A DNA stretch of 64,000 nucleotides from Phycisphaerae bacterium (GTDB taxonomy: Bacteria > Planctomycetota > Phycisphaerae > SM23-33): the NCBI GenBank assembly GCA_041946855.1, contig JBHGBE010000003.1:47662-111661 (forward strand), read 5' to 3'. A model generated the notes under the pieces. It did not search any database and was not told the origin of the DNA. It worked only from the letters and a program-made list of their open reading frames with translations. The translations under genes and the position numbers were made by a program. Positions 822 through 63,653 of this stretch are shown piece after piece; the stretch's first letter is position 1, and each line of letters begins with the position of its first letter.

Positions 822-956
822 CGGCGATGAAGGTTGGGTCCTCTGCAACGTCGTGCCGTGAACCTGGTCAGGTCCGGAAGGAAGCAGCCATAAGCGTGCC
901 AGCGACGTGTGCCGGAGGGTCGCCTGACTGGAGCCGTTCGACCTGGCGGACCCCGT
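822..956 (+). ncRNA. ffs: Signal recognition particle RNA (4.5S/ffs-type)
   Basis: The conserved domain IV motif GGUCAGGUCCGGAAGGAAGCAGCC lies at about 869-892. GCAACG and GUGUGCCGG blocks and the terminal pairing GGGUCC...GGACCC match E. coli 4.5S RNA. The RNA sits immediately upstream of dnaX, as in the conserved ffs-dnaX-ybaB-recR arrangement. The ends are approximate. Confidence 0.75.
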
Positions 957-990
957 GGAAAGCAATTCCAAGCGGAGTGCACGGCATTTT

Positions 991-1117
991 TTGTTGTCGA
1001 TTGACGATTTTCGATTGGCGATTGAACCGCGCGGCCGGCCTCTGGATAATCATCTCCGCGCCGGTTCAAGCGGCGGCATAGGTCAATCGAAAATCGACAA
1101 TCGTAAATCGGCAATCG
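991..1117. repeat. Inverted pair of 7-nt-periodic tandem arrays (GATTGNN units at 991-1027, CAATCNN units at 1079-1117) flanking a roughly 50 bp spacer
   Basis: Direct reading gives tcgattgacgattttcgattggcgattg and, downstream, caatcgaaaatcgacaatcgtaaatcggcaatcg, which is its reverse complement. The element lies between ffs and the dnaX start codon. Confidence 0.8.
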
Positions 1118-1119
1118 CT

Positions 1120-3036
1120 ATGGCCGGATATCTCGTCCTCGCCCGCAAGTACCGCAGCACCACCTTCGACGAAGTCGTGGGCCAGGAGCCCATCGCGCGG
1201 ACGCTGACCAACGCGATCAAGACCGGCCGGGTCGCCCACGCGTACCTTTTCACCGGGACGCGCGGCGTCGGCAAGACGACGATGGCCCGCATCCTGGCCA
1301 AGGCCCTCAACTGTCTGAACTCCGACGGGCCGACCGTCAAGCCCTGCAACAAGTGCGAGTCCTGCCAAGCGATCATGCGCGGGGATGACATCGACGTCAT
1401 CGAGATGGACGGCGCATCGAACCGCGGCATCGACGAGATTCGCGACCTTCGCGCGAACTCCATATTCCGACCGGCGCGCAGCCGCTTCAAGATCTACTAC
1501 ATTGACGAGGTCCACCAGGTCACCAGGGATGCCTTCAACGCACTCTTGAAGACGCTGGAGGAGCCGCCGGAGCACGTGAAGTTCATCTTCGCCACCACAG
1601 AGGCGGAGAAGGTCCCCGCGACGATCCTCTCGCGGTGCCAACGGTACGACTTCCGCAACATCCCGTCGCGCAAGATCGCCGCGCACCTGAAGGAGCTGTG
1701 CAAGGCCGAGAACGTCGAGGTGGACGATGACGCCCTCTTTCGCGTGGCGCGAGCGGGGGCCGGGTCGATGCGGGATGCCCTGAGCCTGCTGGACCAGCTC
1801 ATCGCGGCCGGCGCTGGAAAGGTGGCCGACGCCGACGTGGTGCGACTCCTGGGCACGCCGGCGGAGGAAAAGACGCTGGCCATCGTGACGGCCATCGCCG
1901 CTAGCGACGCGGCCGCGGCGCTTAAGGGACTCAACGAGGTGATCGAAAGCGGCATTTCGCTGGCCAGCGCGGCTGCCGCAATTGGCGACATCTTCCGCAA
2001 CATGATGCTGGCCTCCACGTGCGGCGCGGACAGTGATCTGATCGAGCTGCCGGACACGCAGCGTGCGGCCGTCGGAGAGCTGGCGAAGAAGTTCACCACG
2101 CCGGCCATCGTGCAGATGGTCGGCCTGTGGCAGTCGCTACAGTACAAGTTGCGCGGCACGAGCGTCGCGCGGGCGCTGATGGAGGCGGCGCTTGTGCGGC
2201 TGGCGATGGCGGACAAGTTCGTGGACCCCGCGAGCCTGCTCGAGCGCCTGGAGGCGATCGGCGGTGGCGTGGGCGTGCCGCCCGCGAGTCGAGCCGGCGT
2301 CTCGCCGGCTTCCGGGCCGGCCGCGGCGCCGACACGATACGGCCTGTCGCCCTCCTCGGCGGCGAACTTAAAAAGAAACTTCGCGGTGAGCCTGGCCGCG
2401 GGACTTAGCGCGCCCCCGGTCGGCGCAGGCCCCAGCGTCTCCACGCCGGCCCCGTCCGCCGGCCCGCTCCCGTCGACGACAACTCCTCCCCTGCCTTCAA
2501 GCGCGCCGGCGACGCCGATCCAGTGGAACCTGGCCTGGCTGGCCGCCAACTGGCCGCGGGTGATCGAAGGTCTGACCGCCGCTCGTCAAATGCAGGTGGC
2601 GGGCCTCTTGCGCGTGGCGACGGTGAAGTCGTTCGATGGCGCGGCGCTGGCGCTAGGCTTCGACGTGGCCAACGAGACGCTCCGCCAGCGCGCCGCCGCG
2701 ATGGCCACAACCGTCAACGCTGCGCTGTCCGCAATGGCGGGCCGAGACATCCGCTGCGATTTTCTAAGCACGGTCAACGGGACCGCGCCGGGCGCCGCGC
2801 GTCCCGCCATGGCCGGCGCATCGCCTGCCGGAGGCACCGGCTTCTCTACCGGCGCAGCGGGCAATGGGGCGGGCTTCGCCAACGGCCGGCCCGCCCGCGC
2901 CATGCCCGTCCTAAGCACGGCCGAGAAGGCCGAGATCATGAAGGACCCCGCAGTCCAGGCTGTACTATCCGCCTTTGGCGGGGAGGTGGTTGACATCCGC
3001 AAGGACGCGGCAGTCGCCGACGCTCCGGAAGAGTGA
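1120..3036 (+). CDS. dnaX: DNA polymerase III subunit gamma/tau
   Basis: The N-terminus MAGYLVLARKYRSTTFDEVVGQE, the Walker A motif GTRGVGKTT, the Zn-finger cysteines CNKCESC and the full AAA+ clamp-loader domains are present. The 955 start in the ORF track is an upstream artefact that reads through the repeat and the 3' end of ffs. Confidence 0.95.
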   Translation: MAGYLVLARKYRSTTFDEVVGQEPIARTLTNAIKTGRVAHAYLFTGTRGVGKTTMARILAKALNCLNSDGPTVKPCNKCESCQAIMRGDDIDVIEMDGASNRGIDEIRDLRANSIFRPARSRFKIYYIDEVHQVTRDAFNALLKTLEEPPEHVKFIFATTEAEKVPATILSRCQRYDFRNIPSRKIAAHLKELCKAENVEVDDDALFRVARAGAGSMRDALSLLDQLIAAGAGKVADADVVRLLGTPAEEKTLAIVTAIAASDAAAALKGLNEVIESGISLASAAAAIGDIFRNMMLASTCGADSDLIELPDTQRAAVGELAKKFTTPAIVQMVGLWQSLQYKLRGTSVARALMEAALVRLAMADKFVDPASLLERLEAIGGGVGVPPASRAGVSPASGPAAAPTRYGLSPSSAANLKRNFAVSLAAGLSAPPVGAGPSVSTPAPSAGPLPSTTTPPLPSSAPATPIQWNLAWLAANWPRVIEGLTAARQMQVAGLLRVATVKSFDGAALALGFDVANETLRQRAAAMATTVNAALSAMAGRDIRCDFLSTVNGTAPGAARPAMAGASPAGGTGFSTGAAGNGAGFANGRPARAMPVLSTAEKAEIMKDPAVQAVLSAFGGEVVDIRKDAAVADAPEE

Positions 3037-16870: not shown

Positions 16871-17830
16871 TCAAAGCTGTCGCCGCACAAGCGACCTGAT
16901 CGCCCTTCCGTTGACAGCGTCCCAGTCCCGGCCGTCGGACTTGCGGATGCCCTTGGGTGTCTCCAGGATCATGGGCACTTGCGCCAGGCGCGGGTCGTTG
17001 ACGAAGTTGCGGAAGCCCTCGCGGCCGATGAGGCCCTTGCCGATGTGGGCGTGGCGGTCCACGTGCGAACCCAACTCGCGGACCGAGTCGTTCAGGTGGA
17101 TCGCCATGAGATTCGCCAGGCCGATGATGCGGTCGAACTCGCACATCGTCCGCGCGTAAGCATCCGGCGTGCGGATGTCGTAGCCGGCCGCGAATATGTG
17201 GCAGGTGTCCAGGCAGACGCCGACGCGGGATTTGTCGCTCAACTGCGCGAGGATTTCCGCGATCTGGTCGAACGTGCCGGCGAGGATGCTTCCCGCCCCG
17301 GCCGTCGTCTCGACGAGAATCTTCGGGAAGCCGACCGCGAAACTGGCACGGGCATCCTGCCCGTGAGTAGCAGGGGCATCTTGCCCCTGCACTTCCACGG
17401 GCGGGACGCCCGTGGTACTCATAAGCGAGACGCCCATGCCACGGTTGGACAGAACCTGGTTCAGGGCGTCGGCGATGAGCCGCAGGCCCACGCGGACATC
17501 GCGATTGCCGCCGGGATGTATCACGAGGTATTCGATGCCGAACGCGCGGCATCGCTCCAGGTCGGCCGCGACGGCCGCGATGGACTTGGAGCGCACCGGC
17601 TCCGTCCCGGCCAGGTTCACCAGGTACGAGCCGTGCGCCACCACGGGCGAGATGCCGAGCCGCCGGCGGGTCGCCTTGAACATCTCCACGGCCGTCTCAG
17701 CGAGCGGCGGCACGTGCCACTGCCTCTGGTTGCGGACGAAGACGGCGACCGTGTCGAAGCGGAACCGGCGGGCCTTCTCCAGCGCCGTGTGCATCCCGCC
17801 GGCGATGCTCAGGTGCGAACCGAGAAGCAT
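16871..17830 (-). CDS. nfo: Deoxyribonuclease IV (endonuclease IV)
   Basis: The protein is a TIM-barrel AP endonuclease with the motifs HGSYLVNL, HPGG and CLDTCHIFAAGYD. The 17932 start in the ORF track reads through the 7-mer repeat; the ATG is at 17830. Confidence 0.85.
   Translation of the reverse strand: MLLGSHLSIAGGMHTALEKARRFRFDTVAVFVRNQRQWHVPPLAETAVEMFKATRRRLGISPVVAHGSYLVNLAGTEPVRSKSIAAVAADLERCRAFGIEYLVIHPGGNRDVRVGLRLIADALNQVLSNRGMGVSLMSTTGVPPVEVQGQDAPATHGQDARASFAVGFPKILVETTAGAGSILAGTFDQIAEILAQLSDKSRVGVCLDTCHIFAAGYDIRTPDAYARTMCEFDRIIGLANLMAIHLNDSVRELGSHVDRHAHIGKGLIGREGFRNFVNDPRLAQVPMILETPKGIRKSDGRDWDAVNGRAIRSLVRRQL
17347..17414. repeat. Three tandem GC-rich mini-hairpins inserted in frame in nfo (CACGGGCAtccTGCCCGTG, CAGGGGCAtctTGCCCCTG, CACGGGCGggaCGCCCGTG)
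   Basis: Direct reading shows the hairpins. The encoded segment GMGVSLMSTTGVPPVEVQGQDAPATHGQDARA is absent from E. coli Nfo at this position. Confidence 0.75.
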
Positions 17831-20181: not shown

Positions 20182-22671
20182 ATGGCACTGGGATTCTTCC
20201 GCCGCCACCAGAAGGGAGTGATGATCATCATGGTCTTCCTGATGGTCAGCTTCCTGGTCAGCACTCTCGGGTGGGAGTACATAGGCAGGCGCATCGCGGA
20301 CCTGTTTCACCTCAATCCCGAGTTCAGGGAGGTGGGCACATCGGTCTACGGCCCCGTACAGGCCGGGCGCCTTCAGTCCCTGAAGGCCGAGCTGTACATC
20401 CTGAGGCAGACGGCCCTGTCGGAAGGACTTCGGAGGACGAGCAGGTACCGCGTGCCGGGCGCGGACGAATTCGCCCTGCTCGAGCAGAACGGCGACAACG
20501 ACGCCCTGGCCTTCGCGCTGCTGCTACAGGAGGCCGAGCACAACGGCGTCAAGGTCGCCGGCCAGGAAGTCCAGAACGAGATGGAGATGATCGGCCTGAC
20601 GGGGGAGTACTACAAGAACCTGCTGTCCAGGCTCCAGGGCGACCGCGAGGCCGGCCGGGTCACCGACGCCGAAGTCCGCCAGGCCGTCCGCGACTGGCTG
20701 ATGGTCTACAAGTCGGCGCAGGAAAACGCGTACGACGTGCCGCCCTCGGAGACGGAGGTCGCGCACCTCTACCAGGATATCTCCGAGCGGATCAACCTCC
20801 GCGTGGTCAAGGTCTCCGCGGAGGAGCTGGTGGCCAAGGCCCTGGCCACGACCATGCCCACGACCGCGCCCTCGTCGTCGCCGGCGAGCGCCCCGTCCGA
20901 AGCGGCGCTCAAGAGGATAGCGGCCGTCCCCAGCGAGGCGGAGATCAACGCCCAGTTCATGAGCTTCCGCGGCGTCGCGCCGGGCACGCTGCCCGACAAG
21001 AGCGCCTTCGGCTTCGGCTACAAGCTGCCCGACCGGGCGAAGGTGGCGTACCTGTTCATCAGCCAGCGCGTGCTGGACAGGGCGGTCCGCCCCAGCCCCG
21101 ATGAACTGATGCAGTACTACAGGGATCATCGCAAGGACAAGGTTCGGGTGCCCGAGGGGGCCTCCGCCCAGACCAGGCCGGAGTCGGCTCCCTCGACGGC
21201 ATCCGCCCCGGCCAGCCGATCCGCCGAGGAGGCGCCGAAGGAGAAGGAGGTCGTCCTGGGCAGCCTGCCGTTCAGCCAGGCCAAGCCGATCATCGTCAAG
21301 CTCCTTGCGCCCGAGGCCGCCGACAAGAGGAAGAACGACCTTGTCAACCGCGCCGCGGAGATCGAATTGAGACTCGCCGGCCGGCAACTGCCGACAGGCA
21401 TGAACATCTACGAGGCCATTGTGCGCGGGCTGCCGGCGGCCGGGCCGGAGCCCGAAGTGCCGGGCCTGATGCAGACCGGGCCCGCCGAGATGAAGCTCGC
21501 CGCCACCATCAGGTCCCCCATCAGGAACGTGCCGTTGGACCGCGCGATGGACATGCTGGCGGAGGATGTGGGCCTGACCGCCATCTGCTACCCGTGGGGC
21601 AGGCACGGCAGCGAGACCTACAGCCAGTCGCTGCTTGTCTCGGTCAACGTGCCCGAAGGGCAGCAGATCACGCTTGAGGCCGCACTGAAGCAGATAGCGA
21701 TGCAACTCAAGATGACCGCGATGATCGGCGGATGGCGGATGTGCGACCAGGTCGACAACGTACTGTTTCCCATCCCGGCCTCAGACGTGGACGATCTTGA
21801 GATGTTCCCCGTCTCCGCCCGCCAGACGCCGCTGGAGGACCTCGACGCCTTCCGCAAGGATGATGTCCTGGGCAGCAGCTACGTAATTGGCGGGGGCGGG
21901 CGGACGCTGATCCAGGAGGCATTCACCGCCCAGCCGTTCGGCGGCGATCCTCGCATGCCGCACATGAAGGTGGGCGACAAGGGCTCTCAGATGCAGGTCA
22001 TGGGCGCCACGCCCGGCTGGCTGCTGTGGCGGCTGCTGGACGCCGCGCCGGCCGCGGACCCCGAGCCATCCGCCATCAACACCGACGCGGAGCTTCGCAA
22101 GAAGGTCATCCACGACATCAGGATCACCGTCGCGATGGCCGTGGCCCAGCAGGAGGCGCTGGCCATCGAGCGGGCGGCGGTCAAGGACGGGCTTGAGAAG
22201 GCCGCCGCGGCCGCCGGCTTCGAAAGCTACGAAACAGGCATGTTCTCCCGGAAGAACTTCAACCTACAGTGGAACGACGTGCCGAAGCTGGACCTGGACG
22301 CCATCGAGAACGCCAAGATGAGGGAGTCCTTGAAGGAGTCCGTCATCGGCCAGGTCTTCTCGCTGGTCCCCAAGAACGTCGAGCCGACCACGCAAGGTTA
22401 TGGAACCAGCGGCATCCTGTCCCTGCGCCTGCCGCCGAAGCGCGAGGTCGTGCTGGTGCAGCGGATCGGCTACTCGCCATCGGTGAAGAGCGAGTTCGAG
22501 TCGTTCGGCCGGCGGGTGATCGCCGGCTACCTGGCCAACAACCGGCTGGCCAGCGGGCTCCAGCGCTGGTTCTTCCTGGGCATGACCGAGCAGGGAATGT
22601 TTCCGTTCGGCATCGCCAAGCGCGTGGACTACAAGAAGAAGCTGGAAGAGGGCGGCCCGCGAGCGCCTTGA
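20182..22671 (+). CDS. Membrane-anchored periplasmic protein with a SurA-N-like/PpiD-like chaperone domain
   Basis: An N-terminal TM helix is followed by a SurA_N-like region. The protein is 829 aa. The assignment is tentative. Confidence 0.35.
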   Translation: MALGFFRRHQKGVMIIMVFLMVSFLVSTLGWEYIGRRIADLFHLNPEFREVGTSVYGPVQAGRLQSLKAELYILRQTALSEGLRRTSRYRVPGADEFALLEQNGDNDALAFALLLQEAEHNGVKVAGQEVQNEMEMIGLTGEYYKNLLSRLQGDREAGRVTDAEVRQAVRDWLMVYKSAQENAYDVPPSETEVAHLYQDISERINLRVVKVSAEELVAKALATTMPTTAPSSSPASAPSEAALKRIAAVPSEAEINAQFMSFRGVAPGTLPDKSAFGFGYKLPDRAKVAYLFISQRVLDRAVRPSPDELMQYYRDHRKDKVRVPEGASAQTRPESAPSTASAPASRSAEEAPKEKEVVLGSLPFSQAKPIIVKLLAPEAADKRKNDLVNRAAEIELRLAGRQLPTGMNIYEAIVRGLPAAGPEPEVPGLMQTGPAEMKLAATIRSPIRNVPLDRAMDMLAEDVGLTAICYPWGRHGSETYSQSLLVSVNVPEGQQITLEAALKQIAMQLKMTAMIGGWRMCDQVDNVLFPIPASDVDDLEMFPVSARQTPLEDLDAFRKDDVLGSSYVIGGGGRTLIQEAFTAQPFGGDPRMPHMKVGDKGSQMQVMGATPGWLLWRLLDAAPAADPEPSAINTDAELRKKVIHDIRITVAMAVAQQEALAIERAAVKDGLEKAAAAAGFESYETGMFSRKNFNLQWNDVPKLDLDAIENAKMRESLKESVIGQVFSLVPKNVEPTTQGYGTSGILSLRLPPKREVVLVQRIGYSPSVKSEFESFGRRVIAGYLANNRLASGLQRWFFLGMTEQGMFPFGIAKRVDYKKKLEEGGPRAP

Positions 22672-22740: not shown

Positions 22741-22813
22741 GGGTAGGTAGCTCAGCTGGTAGAGCGCGGCACTGAAAATGCCGAGGTCGCCGGTTCAATC
22801 CCGGCCCTACCCA
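22741..22813 (+). tRNA. tRNA-Phe (anticodon GAA)
   Basis: The cloverleaf runs from the acceptor stem GGGTAGG, through the D-arm TAGCTCAGCTGGTAGAGC, the anticodon loop CTGAAAA and the T-arm GGTTCAATCC, to ...CCCTACCCA. Confidence 0.9.
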
Positions 22814-26587: not shown

Positions 26588-27049
26588 ATGCCTAGTTACA
26601 AGTACTCCTTCGTCAAGTGTCGTTACGCCAATGGCATAGTTGACGAGAGAGGCCAGACGTTTGTCCCCGTTCGCATCACGAATCCGTCAACAGGCGTCTG
26701 GCGAATGGCATGGGGATTGATAGACACGGGCGCGGAGTCCTGTCTGTTTCCCGCCAATCTGGCCGCAAAGCTTGGACATGTCCTGAAGGCCAAGGGCGTC
26801 AAGGCAAGCGTAGCCAGCGGGATTGAGGAAAGGCCTGTCACCACGTAAAAGCATACCTTCCGGGTCGAGCTTATGTCGAAGGACCTGCAAAGGGTGGTCT
26901 GGCGGTCCGGCAAAATGGAAGTAGACTGCGCCGAATGCAACTCCCTAGTCATACTTGGCGTGGACAACCTGTTCGCATCGTTCAGGTTAACGATAGACTA
27001 CCCTAAGGAAGTCATGCGTTTCCAGTGGCAGCGGGCGATAGGGAAGTGA
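26588..27049 (+). pseudogene. Retropepsin-like (clan AA) aspartic protease interrupted by an in-frame TAA at 26846-26848
   Basis: The D-T-G active site LIDTGAESCLF is present. A C-terminal motif LVILGVDNLFASFRLTIDYPKEV continues in the same frame after the stop. The region has low GC. Confidence 0.55.
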
Positions 27050-27063
27050 GTCGAGTTCTTCCG

Positions 27064-28020
27064 ATGGGCGTCGAGAGAGTAACCTCTGTTCCCAGACTTC
27101 CAGCGCGTGCCGCCGACGCAAACAAGGGCAGTTTCGGGCGGGTGCTGATCGTCGGCGGGTGCAGGAAGATGTCCGGCGCGGTGGCGCTGGCGTCGAACGC
27201 GGCGCTGCGCGGCGGGGCGGGGCTGGTGGAGTTCGCGGCGCCGGCCGTCGCGCACCCGATCATCGCGGGCCTGTGCCCCTGCGCGGTGTCGCTGCCGCTG
27301 GAGTGCGACGAGCACGGCGAGATTTCTCCGGCCGCTCTGCCGCAGGTCCGCGAGCGTTTCGAGAAGGCCACGGTCCTGGCCGTCGGGCCGGGGTTCGGCG
27401 TGGGAGTTGTCCAGCGGAATATCGTGCAGGCGGCGCTGGAGCAGGAAAAGCCAGCCGTCATCGACGCCGACGGCCTCAATAACCTGGCGAAGATCGAGGA
27501 CTGGCCTTTGCTGCGCAATTGCCCGCTGATCCTGACGCCCCATCCGGGCGAGTTCTCGCGCCTGACGGGCAAGACGATCCGGGAAATCCAGGACGATCGG
27601 GAGAGAATCGCTGTAGAGACCGTCAGGAAATGGACTGCTCGTAGTGTGCCCGTAAGGGCATCCGCTCGCAGCGTGCCCGCAAAGACATCGAAGAACTCCT
27701 TACGGCGTCACTACGAACGCGGATGCGAAGTCGTGCTCGTCCTCAAGGGCGCTGGCACGGTCGTCACCGACGGCCGGCGCGTCTACATCAACAAGACCGG
27801 CAACCCCGGCATGGCCACCGGCGGCACCGGCGACGTGCTGACCGGCCTGACGGCCGCCCTTATCGCCCAGCACCTCGAACCGTTCGACGCCGCGTGCCTG
27901 GCCGTTCATCTCCACGGCCGTGCGGGCGACCTGGCGGCGGAACAGCTCGGCCAGACATCACTCATCGCCTCGGACCTGATAGACTTCCTGCCCGCCGCGA
28001 TCAAAGAAGTTCTGCTATAA
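27064..28020 (+). CDS. nnrD: ADP-dependent NAD(P)H-hydrate dehydratase (YjeF C-terminal family)
   Basis: GSFGRVLIVGG, LKGAGTVV and GMATGGTGDVLTG are present. Confidence 0.8.
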   Translation: MGVERVTSVPRLPARAADANKGSFGRVLIVGGCRKMSGAVALASNAALRGGAGLVEFAAPAVAHPIIAGLCPCAVSLPLECDEHGEISPAALPQVRERFEKATVLAVGPGFGVGVVQRNIVQAALEQEKPAVIDADGLNNLAKIEDWPLLRNCPLILTPHPGEFSRLTGKTIREIQDDRERIAVETVRKWTARSVPVRASARSVPAKTSKNSLRRHYERGCEVVLVLKGAGTVVTDGRRVYINKTGNPGMATGGTGDVLTGLTAALIAQHLEPFDAACLAVHLHGRAGDLAAEQLGQTSLIASDLIDFLPAAIKEVLL

Positions 28021-51639: not shown

Positions 51640-53088
51640 TCATCTGGAAGTCTGCTCTGTTGTCACGATCATCGCAACAGCACACGCCGCGAGGACTATC
51701 AACGGCACTTCCGTCATGGGGAATCGGAATCGCTGGTGGAATACGAACGGCAGCGCGGCCGCCAGGTTGGCCGCTACGCAGAGCAGGACGGGCGCGCCGG
51801 TTGACCACGACACGCCCCGGCGGATGAACCACCACGCCGCCAGCACGAACGTCAGGCCGTTGACGATCCCCAGCACGGCCGCCTGCCAGGCCGGCATGAT
51901 GAACACCGTCGGCCAGGGGCGGACGAAGTGCCACAGCCGGTACGCCCATATCGCGGCCGCGTCGCTCGGATGCTCGCGGAGCCAGTCCATCGCCAGCGCG
52001 GTCCATTCACGGCCGGTCTGCCGGGGATCGAACAGGCCGTCGCGCTGCATCTTGGCGACGTGCTGGGCCGAGTCCTCGTCGTAGAGTGCCTTCTGCTCGC
52101 GGTCGAACGTCGCCTTGTCGGCCGCGCGGTAGGAGGCAAGGATGCGGGCGTTATTGCCCAGCCAGAAGTTGTACGGGCCGAAGGCCGTCGTCGGAGTCCA
52201 GCCCGCGCCGGTGATGCCCTGGCGGATGGTCCATGGCGCAAGCACCACCGCCATCGTCAGCACGGCCGGCAGGATCGCGGCCCGCGCCCAGCGCCTCTTC
52301 CCGACCGCCAGCACGGCCAACGCCGCGACGATCAGCGCGCAGAAGGCCAGGCCGTTGGGCCTTGCCAAGCAGCACAAGGCCATCGCAGCGCCGCAAAGTG
52401 CTCCCATTCGCCCCGGCCGTGCCAGGCCGTGTTCTTGTGGCGTGGGCCTCTGGCCCGCGTGTCTCGCGGCCGTCTCGGCCGCGACCGCAGGCGAGACGCC
52501 TGCGGGACGCACGGGCGGGACGCCCATGCCACGTTCATCCAGCCGGCCCGGCCGTGCGACGGCGGGCAGCCTCACCAGCAGCCACAGGGCCGCAAGGATG
52601 CACAGCGCAAAGAGCGTCTCGCTGCTCCACATCCGGCTGTAGTGGATGACGGCCGGATGGAAGCCAAGCGCCAGCGCCGCCAGCGGCCTGGCCCACCGCA
52701 CTCCGGGCGCGACGGCCCCCGCAAGCCCAATCCCCGCCAGCACCAGGGCCATAGCCATGACCCACGCCGCCACCTTCGCGCAGATCAGCCACGCCCGCGG
52801 CGCGGACTGGCCGCCCACCCACCAGAGCGGCGCGCCGATCAGGGGCAGCAGCGGCGGACGGTACACATCGGCGTGGAAGGCAGGGGGATTCGGCGGCGCC
52901 GGCTCGTACCAGCGGTAGAAGCTCACCGCGAACCCGCGCCCCGCGGCCAGATTGCGGGAGATGTCGCGGTATTCCGTGCCGTCATCGTGCAGGAAGGCAT
53001 CTTCACTTGTCACGGCCAGCGCGGCGACGCGGACCGCGCCGGCCAGCACGATCGCCAGGACCGTGACGATCGCGCGAAGGTCCGCCAT
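51640..53088 (-). CDS. ArnT/PMT-family (GT39/GT83-like) membrane glycosyltransferase
   Basis: N-terminal TM helices with HDDGTEY...RPPLLPL are followed by many TM segments. The triple-hairpin repeat lies in frame at 52490-52533. Confidence 0.6.
   Translation of the reverse strand: MADLRAIVTVLAIVLAGAVRVAALAVTSEDAFLHDDGTEYRDISRNLAAGRGFAVSFYRWYEPAPPNPPAFHADVYRPPLLPLIGAPLWWVGGQSAPRAWLICAKVAAWVMAMALVLAGIGLAGAVAPGVRWARPLAALALGFHPAVIHYSRMWSSETLFALCILAALWLLVRLPAVARPGRLDERGMGVPPVRPAGVSPAVAAETAARHAGQRPTPQEHGLARPGRMGALCGAAMALCCLARPNGLAFCALIVAALAVLAVGKRRWARAAILPAVLTMAVVLAPWTIRQGITGAGWTPTTAFGPYNFWLGNNARILASYRAADKATFDREQKALYDEDSAQHVAKMQRDGLFDPRQTGREWTALAMDWLREHPSDAAAIWAYRLWHFVRPWPTVFIMPAWQAAVLGIVNGLTFVLAAWWFIRRGVSWSTGAPVLLCVAANLAAALPFVFHQRFRFPMTEVPLIVLAACAVAMIVTTEQTSR
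52490..52533. repeat. GC-rich hairpin element (ggcgagacgcctgcgggacgcacgggcgggacgcccatgccacg), intragenic and in frame
   Basis: About 31 nt are nearly identical to the reverse complement of 62193-62240 and related to 17347-17414. Confidence 0.7.
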
Positions 53089-53937
53089 GCCGCGAGATGA
53101 GGGCGAGCGATGCACGAGGCGAGTATATCGCCGCCGCTCGGGCGGCTTCAACTTCCGCGGCGATGAAGCGCAAGTGCTTCGCGCGCATCCGCGTCAAGCC
53201 GAAGCATAAAGCGCCGGCCGGATTTTCCCCGGCGCAACGTTCAGCGCCGCCGTGCGTTGGGCAGGCGCGGGCGCGAAGCCTCAAGTTTTCCCGCCCGCGC
53301 GCCGATAAATGCGGTGGTATAATGGCGGTGGAAAAGTGAATAAGAGTTGATCACACGCCTCTGCCGTGCCCGGCGGGCGCGTCATGTGAAAAGAACCGAT
53401 AAACCCATTAAGGGAAGCCTGGTCCGAATCGCTCCGGCGGTTGGCAGCTACCCACTTGAACTAATGGGTTCTTTCTCCTGACCGCCACCGGCATTCGCGG
53501 AGGCTTCTTTTTGCGCACACGGCTGAAGGGCTTCGACAGCGGAGGTACCTGAGGAACGGAGGGAGACTACCTGCGTGTCGCGGTAGTCCGAGGTCCTGGC
53601 TGCCGAACGAGGCCGCCAAATGCGGCAGGGCCATTATACTTGCCTCAGTTCCTCCGGTTCCTCCGTTGTGAGAAGAAACCGATTACAGTCCCAAAGCCCC
53701 GGCACCTGGGACAGTCCCCGCGCCGGCTTTTCGCTTGAAAAATCCCGCGCCTCGCCGCCATAATGCTTCGTCTGGCTGGGCCTTGACCCGCCTTGGCGGG
53801 TCGTGTTGCGCACAGGCCCCAGACGTGCGAGCTATCATGGAGGATGGATTTCGGCCGGACTGCCCACGGATGGACGGCAGGTGGATGCTTCCTCGCTTCT
53901 GTGCTTTTTGCCTCGGCCGTGATGCGGAGCAACGGAC

Positions 53938-61463: not shown

Positions 61464-63653
61464 CTACCTGTCCATTTCCCCCCGGTATTGGGCGATGTAC
61501 TTCCTGAGCCGGGCGAGATAGTCCTCCAGGCCCAGGAGCTTCTCGTCGAGAATGAGGTAGGTCATATCGGGCGTGCGGTTGGCGAAGTGCCTGGCGCGGT
61601 CGCGGGCGAATACGTAGGGCTTGCCAGGAAGCGACATGCCCTTCGGCAGGCGTGTCCGCTCCCACAGCTTCACCAGTTCGGCGAAGACGCGGCGGCGGTC
61701 GGCCAGATGGTCCTCAATCAGCTTCGCCGCACGCTTGAGGTGGCCCAGGGCCGCGGGGCGGTTGGAGTAGTGCTCGCTCGACGCCAGGCATACGGCGTAC
61801 TCAAGCTCCCCGAGCATCGGAAAAAGCTCCGCGTTGTGGCGCATCAGCTCCACGCAGGACCGCATTATCTCCAGGTCGTAGCTGTTGGCCGCGCCGCGGG
61901 CGAGATTGTCGTCGATGATGGCCGTCGCGCGGGCCAGCTTGATCCTCTGCTCGCCGGCAAGGTTCACAAGCTGCCGGTATCGCCGCCGCCAGTAGTTGCT
62001 GATCTCCAGGTCGCCGCGCGGGAAATCGGGCAGGTGGACCTTGCCCACGTCGCCGCTGTGCCAGACCTTGCGCTGAAGCGTGTCGTAGTAGAACTCGGCC
62101 GTCTCCTGGAGGATGGCGAAGAGCTCGTGCATGTCCCGCGAACGGGGGCCGAAGTAGTTGCGGAAGAACCGGCGCGTCCATGCCTCCACGTCGCGCTCGC
62201 CGCGTGGCATGGGCGTCTCGCCCGTGCGTCCGGCGGGCATCTTGCCCGCCTTCCACGAGAACTCGGCCGCGCATACGAACCGCGGCAGCCACATCTGCGT
62301 GTGCAGGCCCGAGTCGTCCCATGACGTGGTGATGGAGCCTTCGACCAGCTTCTCGGCCGCCGCGGCCGCGATGGTCGGCCCGGTCTGGCCGAACACGCCC
62401 TCGCGCCTGCGGCCCGGCTCTTCCTGCCACATCGACCGCTCGATCCATGGGAAGTGCGGCAGGAACAGCGGCGTGATGCCGGGGTTGGGCCCGTAGACCC
62501 AGTAGATGTGCCCGGCCTTGTTGGCGGCGCGGAGGTAGCTCACGTCGCTGAAGTCAACGCACCGCATCGTCCGCGGCGGCGCGTGCGGCGAAGAGGGCTT
62601 CCACTGGCCGCCCCACGAGATGACCTTACGGCCGCGCTTTTCCAGGCGCTCGACGCAGCGGCGGATGAAGACCTGCATCAGGCCGTCCTTGCCGACGGCC
62701 TCGGCCCGCGCCTTGCACCCGCAGGCCTCGCCAAGGCCAAGCTCGTACGTCTCGTCGCTGCCGATGTGGATTAATTCGCTGCCCGGCGTGGCGTCGATGG
62801 CCTCATCCCACAGGTCAAAGAGCAGCTCGTACGTCCCATCCTTGAGCGGACAGAACTCCCAGTTTGAGTCGGCGATCTCGCGGAGGCGGCGGTGCCTGGG
62901 GTGCTTGAGTATGTACGAGACGTGGCCCAGGCCCTGCACCAGCGGCACGATCTGGACGTGGTGCTGCCGCGCGAAGCGGGCAAAGCCGCGCATTTGCTCA
63001 GGCGCGAACGCGCCGGGGGCGCCGACTTCCGGATGGCTGCGGTATGCGAACTTGTCCTCCCATTCCCAGACCAGCACGTTGACCTTGTACGAGGCAAGCT
63101 GGCGGATGAGCGACTCGACATAGCCGGCCGTCGGCTGGTGGTGCTTGGTATCGTAGTGTATGGCGCGGTACTGGACATCCGGCCAGTCGCGAATATCCAA
63201 ACACGGCGCGACTGCCGTGCCGTCGTCGCCGCGCTGAACGCACTGCCGCAGCGTTTGACAGGCGTAGTAGATGCCGGCCGCATCCGCGCCTTCGATAGTG
63301 ATCCGCCGCGGCGCGATGGTCAGGCGGTATCCGTCCTGCGGCAGTCCGGCCCGCCGCGATATGTCGATTGTCACAGCCCGCCCGCGCGGCCCGGCGCTGG
63401 CGACCTTCGCGTCGACACCCATTTCCGCCTTCAGTGCCTGCGCCAGGCATCTGGCCGCGAACACATCCTCGCGTGGCGCTCCCCTGTGCTGGATGATGGC
63501 CGCGCCATTGGCCAGGTCGCAGACGCCTTTGAGCGGCTTGATGACTTGCGGTTCGGGGATGAGGGAAAGCCCAAGCGATTCCAAGGTGTCTGTTGCCACT
63601 GGTTCTCTCCATGACGGCCGTGACATTACACACGGATGCACGCCGGCTGGCAA
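61464..63653 (-). CDS. Glycoside hydrolase family 20 (beta-N-acetylhexosaminidase-like) protein
   Basis: RDWPDVQYRAIHYDTKHH and HIGSDE (the GH20 catalytic pair) are present. The hairpin repeat lies in frame at 62193-62240. Confidence 0.75.
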   Translation of the reverse strand: MPAGVHPCVMSRPSWREPVATDTLESLGLSLIPEPQVIKPLKGVCDLANGAAIIQHRGAPREDVFAARCLAQALKAEMGVDAKVASAGPRGRAVTIDISRRAGLPQDGYRLTIAPRRITIEGADAAGIYYACQTLRQCVQRGDDGTAVAPCLDIRDWPDVQYRAIHYDTKHHQPTAGYVESLIRQLASYKVNVLVWEWEDKFAYRSHPEVGAPGAFAPEQMRGFARFARQHHVQIVPLVQGLGHVSYILKHPRHRRLREIADSNWEFCPLKDGTYELLFDLWDEAIDATPGSELIHIGSDETYELGLGEACGCKARAEAVGKDGLMQVFIRRCVERLEKRGRKVISWGGQWKPSSPHAPPRTMRCVDFSDVSYLRAANKAGHIYWVYGPNPGITPLFLPHFPWIERSMWQEEPGRRREGVFGQTGPTIAAAAAEKLVEGSITTSWDDSGLHTQMWLPRFVCAAEFSWKAGKMPAGRTGETPMPRGERDVEAWTRRFFRNYFGPRSRDMHELFAILQETAEFYYDTLQRKVWHSGDVGKVHLPDFPRGDLEISNYWRRRYRQLVNLAGEQRIKLARATAIIDDNLARGAANSYDLEIMRSCVELMRHNAELFPMLGELEYAVCLASSEHYSNRPAALGHLKRAAKLIEDHLADRRRVFAELVKLWERTRLPKGMSLPGKPYVFARDRARHFANRTPDMTYLILDEKLLGLEDYLARLRKYIAQYRGEMDR
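62193..62240. repeat. GC-rich hairpin element (cgtggcatgggcgtctcgcccgtgcgtccggcgggcatcttgcccgcc), intragenic and in frame
   Basis: It is the reverse complement of the ArnT copy. Confidence 0.7.

Follow-up and report, generated by a model that had tools for sequence, protein, structure and literature searches.

Tagged repetitive extragenic palindromes probably occur in frame in four genes of a Phycisphaerae bacterium

Two superfamilies of repetitive extragenic palindromes (REPs), one tagged GTAG and the other CGTC, were distinguished by Di Nocera et al. (Di Nocera, De Gregorio, Rocco 2013, BMC Genomics 14:522; PMC3733652); according to the criteria of Quentin et al. 2018 (PMC6006769), REPs carry GTAG or GTGG at 0–2 nt on the 5' side of a fully paired stem of 7–20 bp with a loop of 2–5 nt. 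Opitutus terrae was found to be richest in intragenic GTAG REPs, many of which lie within replication and repair genes, and in one O. terrae family the tag is changed to GTGG in most copies (PMC3733652). Intragenic copies of the O. terrae family GTAG-19 encode the peptides GTGVPPV, GTGVSPV, HGRDARAT, HGQDARAT, MGGTPMPRGTGVPPV, WHGRPAR and TGGTPVP (Additional file 3, PMC3733652); their hosts include uvrA, dnaE2, helicases and glycoside hydrolases, including one of family GH20 (PMC3733652). Here, short hairpin repeats are described in a stretch of 64,000 nt (the window) from a Phycisphaerae (Planctomycetota) metagenome-assembled genome (MAG), where they lie within dnaX, nfo, a gene for an ArnT-like protein and a GH20 gene. 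It is quite probable that, taken together, these units are GTAG/GTGG-tagged REPs of the GTAG-19 family, which would be copied in trans by a REP-associated tyrosine transposase (RAYT), retained by survivorship and without any required function.

An earlier note, made from the letters of the window, had described a triple hairpin in nfo, a related sequence in frame in the ArnT-like gene and its reverse complement in frame in the GH20 gene. The three hairpins are real (17347–17365, 17371–17389 and 17396–17414, each with a perfect 8-bp stem and a 3-nt loop), and so are the relatives at 52437–52532 and 62204–62250; the element itself, however, is a tagged unit of 23 nt, arranged in dimers with a period of 24 nt, and four such units are present in nfo. 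A covariance model, R1, built from 64 distinct units which all came from genomes other than the source genome, detected exactly 12 units in the window (21.9–35.3 bits, E ≤ 0.0065; the next match had 13 bits and E ~0.9). They form four clusters, with two units in dnaX, four in nfo, four in the ArnT-like gene and two in the GH20 gene (Table 1), i.e., 12 units lie at four loci within the 64 kb covered. The earlier list of hosts had missed dnaX (2264–2310), the ArnT-like unit at 52437–52459 and the nfo unit at 17420–17442. An exact 19-mer, GCGAGACGCCCATGCCACG, is common to nfo (unit nfo-4) and the GH20 copy, and the ArnT-like dimer at 52486–52532 is identical to the GH20 dimer at 40 of 47 nt. The nfo product is 100% identical to a Phycisphaerae MAG deoxyribonuclease IV at NCBI; for the GH20 and the ArnT-like product, too, NCBI has a MAG protein of 100% identity.

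Table 1. Host genes, dimers and units of the repeat in the window; sequences are given as tag, 5' arm, loop and 3' arm.
Feature	Position	Strand	Sequence	Encoded peptide	R1 match	Remarks
Host gene dnaX, DNA polymerase III tau/gamma	955–3036 (open reading frame)	+				Start codon uncertain; Pfam DNA_pol3_delta2, DNAX_ATPase_lid, DNA_pol3_gamma3
dnaX dimer	2264–2310	+		GGVGVPPASRAGVSPA	21.9 + 25.0 bits, E 0.0065 + 0.0012	Head-to-tail; coding strand
dnaX unit	2264–2286	+	GTGG CGTGGGCG TGC CGCCCGCG			
dnaX unit	2288–2310	+	GTCG AGCCGGCG TCT CGCCGGCT			
Host gene nfo, endonuclease IV, 319 aa	16871–17830	-				REP-coded residues ~130–163; Pfam AP_endonuc_2
Unit nfo-1	17343–17365	+	CTGG CACGGGCA TCC TGCCCGTG	...HGQDARAS	17344–17365, 28.8 bits, E 1.4e-4	Antisense to nfo; perfect hairpin
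Unit nfo-2	17367–17389	+	GTAG CAGGGGCA TCT TGCCCCTG		33.1 bits, E 1.3e-5	Exactly 24 nt past nfo-1; head-to-tail dimer
Unit nfo-3	17396–17418	-	GTAC CACGGGCG TCC CGCCCGTG	TTGVPPV	34.7 bits, E 5.3e-6	nfo coding strand
Unit nfo-4	17420–17442	-	GTGG CATGGGCG TCT CGCttatg	GMGVSLM	26.6 bits, E 4.7e-4	3' arm decayed
Host gene ArnT-like, membrane glycosyltransferase-like	51640–53085	-				Homologues P0245–P0247 with PF13231/PF02366; window protein itself without Pfam match
ArnT-like dimer	52437–52483	+		AAETAARHAGQRPTP	28.8 + 26.9 bits	Head-to-tail; antisense to gene
ArnT-like unit	52437–52459	+	GTGG CGTGGGCC TCT GGCCCGCG			
ArnT-like unit	52461–52483	+	GTCT CGCGGCCG TCT CGGCCGCG			
ArnT-like dimer	52486–52532	-		GMGVPPVRPAGVSPA	35.3 + 25.2 bits	Head-to-tail; coding strand of gene
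ArnT-like unit	52510–52532	-	GTGG CATGGGCG TCC CGCCCGTG			
ArnT-like unit	52486–52508	-	GTCC CGCAGGCG TCT CGCCTGCG			
Host gene GH20 beta-N-acetylhexosaminidase	61464–63626	-				PF00728 ends at residue 459; insert starts at ~residue 460
GH20 dimer	62204–62250	+		KMPAGRTGETPMPRG	34.6 + 24.9 bits	Head-to-tail; antisense to gene
GH20 unit	62204–62226	+	GTGG CATGGGCG TCT CGCCCGTG			
GH20 unit	62228–62250	+	GTCC GGCGGGCA TCT TGCCCGCC			

For defining the borders of the unit, the pattern GGCAYGGGCRNNNYGCCCRTG (21 nt, three loop positions free) was scanned over one genome per species, which yielded at least 120 loci; the counts for other genomes given here and below are counts among the matches listed. 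The loop was TCC or TCT, or the complement GGA or AGA, in 119 of 162 pattern matches. Alignment of 138 copies on the TCY loop showed a sharp-bordered block, GTGG-CAYGGGCR-TCY-YGCCCRTG (GTGGCAYGGGCRTCYYGCCCRTG), with a G at position -6 in 131 copies and a T at -5 in 121, both of these positions lying beyond the search pattern; no information was present past either border of the 23-nt block. Since the borders are sharp, the tag is conserved and nothing outside is conserved, the repeat unit comprises 23 nt, namely an unpaired tag of four bases followed by a 19-nt hairpin (8-bp stem, 3-nt loop). The tag GTGG was found in 123 of 234 units from other genomes. In the window, a GT-type tag precedes every hairpin of the family, on the strand of the TCY loop and at 0 nt from the stem, the 12 tags being GTGG (five), GTCC (two), and CTGG, GTAG, GTAC, GTCG and GTCT (one each). 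Seven of the 12 stems are perfect, four have one mismatch (three T.G, and the dnaX unit with the TGC loop) and one has a decayed 3' arm; the TCY loop is present in 11 of the 12.

The element was filed as a REP of the GTAG-19 family, because the peptides match and the tag and hairpin of the window units (tag at 0 nt, 8-bp stem, 3-nt loop) agree with the published REP criteria (PMC6006769, PMC3733652). Organisation in dimers and inverted pairs, as in bacterial interspersed mosaic elements or in REP doublets forming hairpins (REPINs), was also found, and the peptides characteristic of intragenic GTAG-19 copies are encoded in the window. A mainly extragenic location, another REP trait, is not seen there (none of the four clusters is extragenic); this does not exclude membership, since published REP families also include intragenic copies. 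In common with GTAG-19 of O. terrae are thus the unpaired 5' GTGG or GTAG tetranucleotide abutting a short, perfect, GC-rich hairpin, the occurrence of units in dimers and clusters, in-frame copies coding for the same peptides (GTGVPPV, HGRDARAT/HGQDARAT, MGGTPMP, WHGRPAR), and hosts which include replication and repair genes, glycoside hydrolases and a GH20. There are also differences: the host is a Phycisphaerae MAG and not a verrucomicrobium, all four window clusters are intragenic, and the window shows strict 24-nt head-to-tail dimers and inverted pairs of dimers, whereas GTAG-19 typically forms tail-to-tail dimers 1–2 bp apart (PMC3733652). The repeat had been presented in the earlier note as a second, distinct family of translatable hairpins. 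It is a real family of translatable, GC-rich hairpin repeats; it is not a new one, as it matches the GTGG/GTAG-tagged REPs of O. terrae (PMC3733652). The family is already known, and the window provides a new host lineage and new host genes for it. No Rfam family matched the repeat loci at the gathering or E-value threshold, where only sub-threshold chance matches to miRNA models were obtained; literature searches by peptide strings gave no match, and those by 12-mers gave unrelated primer sequences only.

It was also considered whether the similarity is due to chance in a genome of high GC content or to an artefact of MAG assembly. The 21-nt pattern also matches Actinomycetota, Proteobacteria and Firmicutes by chance, and a single shared 17-mer alone is only marginally significant. 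However, perfect hairpins with 8-bp stem and 3-nt loop number nine in the window versus 2.3 ± 1.4 (maximum 6) in 100 dinucleotide-preserving shuffles, eight of the nine having a TCY or RGA loop, and three of them within 100 nt occurred in 0 of 100 shuffles (maximum two, once); R1 scores are cleanly separated, and frame and homology run on at both sides of each insert. The comparison with a shuffled background, which the earlier note had proposed, therefore showed a similarity far above background. Of the loci listed, 43 of 57 from Planctomycetota, 24 of 33 from Verrucomicrobiota (Kiritimatiellia and Lentisphaeria among them) and 7 of 8 from Acidobacteriota contained tagged units, as did single loci from Hydrogenedentota, Sumerlaeota, Armatimonadota and Elusimicrobia. 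Complete genomes with the unit are, for example, those of Fontivita pretiosa B-254 (NZ_CP191258.1) and Verrucomicrobiae OY969416.1. All pattern matches in Actinomycetota, Proteobacteria, Firmicutes and Bacteroidota were devoid of tag and loop and can thus be regarded as chance controls, whereas matches in the Planctomycetes-Verrucomicrobia-Chlamydiae (PVC) group and in Acidobacteriota have both. With these controls, the explanation by chance or artefact is refuted and its probability is practically negligible. One further perfect 8-bp hairpin in the window, at 20365–20387 (GCCTTCAG TCC CTGAAGGC), has a TCC loop, but neither a GT tag nor an R1 match, and is probably due to chance.

All 12 window units belong to head-to-tail dimers, six in number, which have a period of exactly 24 nt, i.e., eight codons. 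The first unit of each dimer is tagged GTGG (once CTGG), the second GTAG, GTAC, GTCG, GTCT or GTCC. In nfo and in the ArnT-like gene two dimers each are present, mutually inverted and with the tags facing outward; inverted pairs 25–32 nt apart predominate in other genomes, where up to five pattern matches per 8 kb were seen. When folded as the sense strand, the four-unit inserts (17338–17447 and 52432–52537, both on the minus strand) each gave one three-way junction, in which the outer units pair together and the inner two each form their own hairpin. The energies were -74.2 kcal/mol for nfo and -77.4 kcal/mol for the ArnT-like insert (z -8.9 and -8.1), and none of 200 shuffles was as stable. 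Such values could suggest that the hairpins are cis-acting structures of the mRNA (for translational pausing, stabilisation or processing), selected and kept for their function, particularly as all four clusters are in genes and many REPs have been suggested to act as RNA elements (Di Nocera et al., PMC3733652). On the other hand, the dnaX dimer does not fold more stably than its shuffles (z -0.8), the units occur in both orientations relative to their hosts, single mismatches show no strand asymmetry (10 of G.T type versus 8 of A.C type, p 0.8), orthologues of the host genes work without the insert, and the hosts are unrelated to each other. A selected RNA function would therefore appear improbable, and the units are better regarded as REPs which persist without required function.

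Rickettsia palindromic elements (RPE) were reportedly described by Ogata et al. in 2000, and small dispersed repeats (SDR) of cyanobacteria are said to have been described by Elhai et al. in 2008. RPE-1-type elements are roughly 100–150 bp long, AT-rich and restricted to Rickettsia. The likeness to RPE (discussed in PMC3733652) consists in selfish palindromes which are located in frame in functional genes and are translated as surface loops; RPE and the REP inserts would follow the same evolutionary logic, namely survivorship at permissive sites. Their sequences are unrelated, and RPE have no GTGG tag; RPE-4 and RPE-6 have been equated with CGTC-tagged, not with GTAG-tagged REPs (PMC3733652). 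Assignment of the window repeat to the RPE was rejected, as the unit has 23 nt, the clusters have 47–99 nt, both are GC-rich and the host belongs to the Planctomycetota, which leaves in-frame insertion as the only common trait. SDR and bacterial MITEs (miniature transposable elements with inverted repeats) are similarly tiny, hairpin-forming mobile repeats capable of entering genes, although they belong to other sequence families and other taxa. MITEs were also rejected: the borders of the 23-nt unit are sharp, without conserved flanks or duplications, and the typical terminal inverted repeats of 15–30 bp, target-site duplications and lengths of 70–300 bp were not seen here. There is also a resemblance to the REPIN/RAYT systems of Pseudomonas and Enterobacteria (Bertels and Rainey 2011, PMC3116915; Nunvar et al. 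2010, PMC2817692), where inverted pairs fold into one long hairpin; in the tetramers of nfo and the ArnT-like gene, the outer units likewise pair with each other. In both cases the elements are non-autonomous, and a Y1 transposase present as a single copy would presumably mobilise them in trans. In contrast to the present unit, which crosses phyla, lies inside genes and for which no RAYT was identified in the sequence searched, REPINs are essentially extragenic and lineage-specific.

By comparison with homologues, all four clusters are in-frame insertions at loops or domain boundaries. The closest homologues of Nfo (59–60% identity, 281–290 aa) lack ~32 of its residues, and alignments to solved Nfo/APN1 structures stop at query residue ~128/129 and restart at ~168/171; the insert (insert peptide GMGVSLMSTTGVPPVEVQGQDAPATHGQDAR) has ~32–39 aa relative to solved structures and closest homologues; the earlier note had given ~35 aa. 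The AlphaFold model of Nfo has a mean pLDDT (predicted local distance difference test) of 83, with values < 50 only at residues 132–165. This sole long segment of low confidence sits between a helix (112–131) and a strand (170–174, KILVETTAG) and matches the REP-coded residues 130–163, so that the insert is predicted to be an unstructured loop directly before the beta-strand KILVETTAG. By the general geometry of TIM barrels, this strand end would lie far from the catalytic face.

In the GH20 protein, exactly 15 residues between SWKAG and ERD, where the catalytic domain defined by Pfam has its C-terminal edge, are absent from all 30 closest homologues which were aligned. The insertion has 45 nt versus the 47 nt of the dimer, and 2–7 border nucleotides (GGC / G GCG GGC; window 62190–62255) match the conserved K-A-G codons of the host; this overlap may reflect microhomology at the insertion site or chance. 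Templating of the second stem arm (GGCGGGCA) by the host was rejected as the main explanation, since the same stem variant, with a GTAG tag, was found in another genome. The ArnT-like insert of ~45 aa is located in a loop which is variable among seven homologues (alignment A2). Two of these, P0243 and P0244, contain in the same loop a different, shorter, proline-rich insert (PLTP...RPSPRWRE; A2 columns ~225–275); the loop tolerates insertions generally. The dnaX dimer follows directly after Pfam domain III, where the tau linker begins.

The consensus unit is free of stop codons in all six frames; a GTAG tag would bring a stop. Of the four clusters, three lack a stop in every one of the six frames, compared with 21% (47 nt) and 4% (96 nt) of random segments of the window. 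As the unit is stop-free and the length of the dimer preserves the frame, copies in permissive loops would simply be translated. The peptides, for which the earlier note had correctly given GMGVPPV-like strings in one orientation and TGETPMP-like strings in the other (where HGQDARAT-like strings also occur), are TTGVPPV, HGQDARAS, GMGVPPV and TGETPMP in the window, and GTGVPPV, HGRDAHAT, WHGRPARD and MGGTPMP at related loci. Selection could be thought to act on such peptides (GTGVPPV / HGQDARAT) as linkers or short linear motifs, the palindrome being a by-product, since the inserts are always located in loops or linkers at domain boundaries and REP peptides are found in the Nfo loop of five of 120 homologues. 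Frames and orientations differ, however, and the resulting peptides are unrelated (TGVPPV, HGQDARA, GMGVS, TGETPMP); conservation is at the nucleotide level, with compensatory changes in stems and a fixed loop and tag, although the covariation count of alignment A3 is not independent evidence, the units having been preselected for at most one stem mismatch. In addition, most copies elsewhere lie outside coding-like open reading frames, and the Nfo insert is predicted to be disordered. Selection on the peptides is thus disfavoured and very improbable, and their translation is better seen as incidental to insertion of a REP.

A further check suggested in the earlier note concerned conservation of the insert in Nfo of unrelated phyla; it is not conserved there, being absent from 115 of the 120 homologues. 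R1 units occur at the same position in P0053 (three; L122 3374–3545), P0021 (two; L123 3392–3479) and P0004 (one; L124 585–611), which are Planctomycetota-like metagenomic nfo genes with neighbours unlike those in the window. Since the numbers of units and the gene neighbours differ, units have probably entered the Nfo loop at least three times independently; turnover of an old insertion would be the alternative. In-frame clusters were also seen in further phyla or classes, at L022 1375–1476, L112 3809–3898, L079 1967–2014 and L013 1361–1409. Among their hosts are a MiaB/RimO-like radical-SAM gene with four units (Fimbriimonadaceae MAG), an AnmK-like gene with three (Opitutus sp.) and a P-loop GTPase-like gene with two (Planctomycetota MAG), the identities of these genes being derived from flanking motifs only. 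Elsewhere only ~10% of the clusters listed are spanned by coding-like open reading frames, i.e., the family is mostly extragenic, and at least 300 nt are open on both sides of only 17% of clusters versus 52% of random positions, a depletion from long open frames.

For the spread of the units, a mechanism can be suggested from the literature on REPs and RAYTs (PMC3733652, PMC2817692, PMC3116915, PMC6006769): a RAYT of the Y1/HUH type would copy them in trans into single-stranded DNA. Within genes, only those copies which keep the frame and lie in tolerant loops would remain; they would be translated as linker peptides rich in Gly, Pro, Ala and Arg, and the units would have no required function. 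Spread without a transposase could perhaps also be envisaged, by replication slippage, template switching at quasi-palindromes and gene conversion, with tandem duplication of 24 nt in situ building the dimers and tetramers. The exact head-to-tail period of 24 nt, the perfect stems in 145 of ~170 tagged units in spite of varying stem sequence, the 45 instead of 47 nt of the GH20 insert with its 2–7 border nucleotides coinciding with the host, and the failure to find a RAYT in the sequence searched or a target-site motif would fit such a process. Yet it is by a conserved unpaired GTGG/GTAG tag with sharp borders that RAYTs of characterised systems recognise their elements (PMC3733652, PMC6006769), unrelated genes in several phyla call for dispersal beyond local duplication, and the dimers are not simple duplications, because their second units have distinct tags and stems. 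Transposase-free spread is therefore considered quite improbable, and copying by a RAYT remains the preferred mechanism for these REPs.

Several observations weigh against the proposed identity and mobilisation. Assignment to GTAG-19 is based on the encoded peptides and on a mention of the GTGG tag in the text, and not on a nucleotide consensus; moreover, the text of PMC3733652 ascribes the GTGG tag to the O. terrae family GTAG-20, in conflict with the numbering of its supplement. A tblastn search with E. coli RayT of the window and 900 kb of related loci (120 listed) produced spurious matches only, this being a weak test, with 64 kb of the source genome and a distant query; weak matches in L012, L102 and L043 were rejected, since they overlap large unrelated open reading frames on the opposite strand, and no RAYT-like frame is present in the REP-dense locus L075. 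No target-site motif was apparent at the unit borders of the 138 aligned copies listed. All four window clusters lie deep within genes and no intergenic unit scores with R1, which is atypical for REPs. The window dimers are pairwise 62–85% identical and are therefore not recent copies, which does not point to recent mobility in the source genome.

REP families are usually lineage-specific, and it is unusual that one REP unit is common to several phyla. Beyond the description of 2013 are this cross-phylum spread, the occurrence in the Nfo loop of at least three lineages and the exclusively intragenic clusters of the window. A more far-reaching proposal would be that the unit GTGG-CAYGGGCR-TCY-YGCCCRTG, conserved as nucleotide sequence across Planctomycetota, Verrucomicrobiota and Acidobacteriota, and probably Hydrogenedentota, Sumerlaeota, Armatimonadota and Elusimicrobia, represents an unusually coding-compatible REP, since it is stop-free in six frames and phased at 24 nt; it would be a cross-phylum source of protein loops, repeatedly hitting the same permissive sites and, in some genomes, surviving mainly or only in genes. 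As a whole this proposal is tentative and rather unlikely.

For annotation, the inserts explain odd, disordered segments of low complexity (of the GTGVPPV/HGQDARAT type) in otherwise conserved enzymes of PVC bacteria and Acidobacteriota, and the family also accounts for the many spurious small intergenic open reading frames with the same peptides. Biologically, it provides a clean case of selfish palindromic DNA translated into protein loops, a phenomenon which at its core has already been described; the conservation of a REP unit across phyla and the repeated insertions in the Nfo loop add modest interest. Two of the four hosts, dnaX and nfo, are replication or repair genes, which echoes the bias reported in 2013 (PMC3733652).

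A weaker relative within nnrD (27025–28020, plus strand) had also been proposed in the earlier note. The sequences are present, but gave no R1 match up to E 10 and represent a tandem duplication of 27 nt (27637–27689, plus strand; Tandem Repeats Finder, period 27, two copies), with arms GCCC..GGGC, the reverse of GGGC..GCCC in the REPs; nnrD was therefore rejected as a host of the family. The duplication codes for ARSVPVRAS/ARSVPAKTS and lies within an insert of ~30 aa relative to solved NnrD structures (2ax3, 3rph). Rfam matches at gathering score in the window were large bacterial SRP (signal recognition particle) RNA, tRNA and 6S RNA, at 704–984, 22741–22813 and 53355–53507. Another class of repeats, presumably the first repeat family implied by the earlier note, consists of inverted pairs of short tandem arrays with a period of 7 or 8 nt, 3–7 copies and a distance of 30–120 nt. 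Such pairs are located at 994–1024/1084–1117, 5254–5285/5319–5335, 14404–14433/14480–14509, 16751–16792/16812–16848, 19988–20012/20135–20159, 32079–32117/32168–32198, 41264–41308/41345–41372, 47494–47518/47545–47600, 55769–55800/55917–55949 and 59730–59762/59792–59833. Each locus has its own heptamer, i.e., what is conserved is the architecture and not the sequence; intergenic pairs, of which one directly follows the SRP RNA, occur beside others within long open reading frames.

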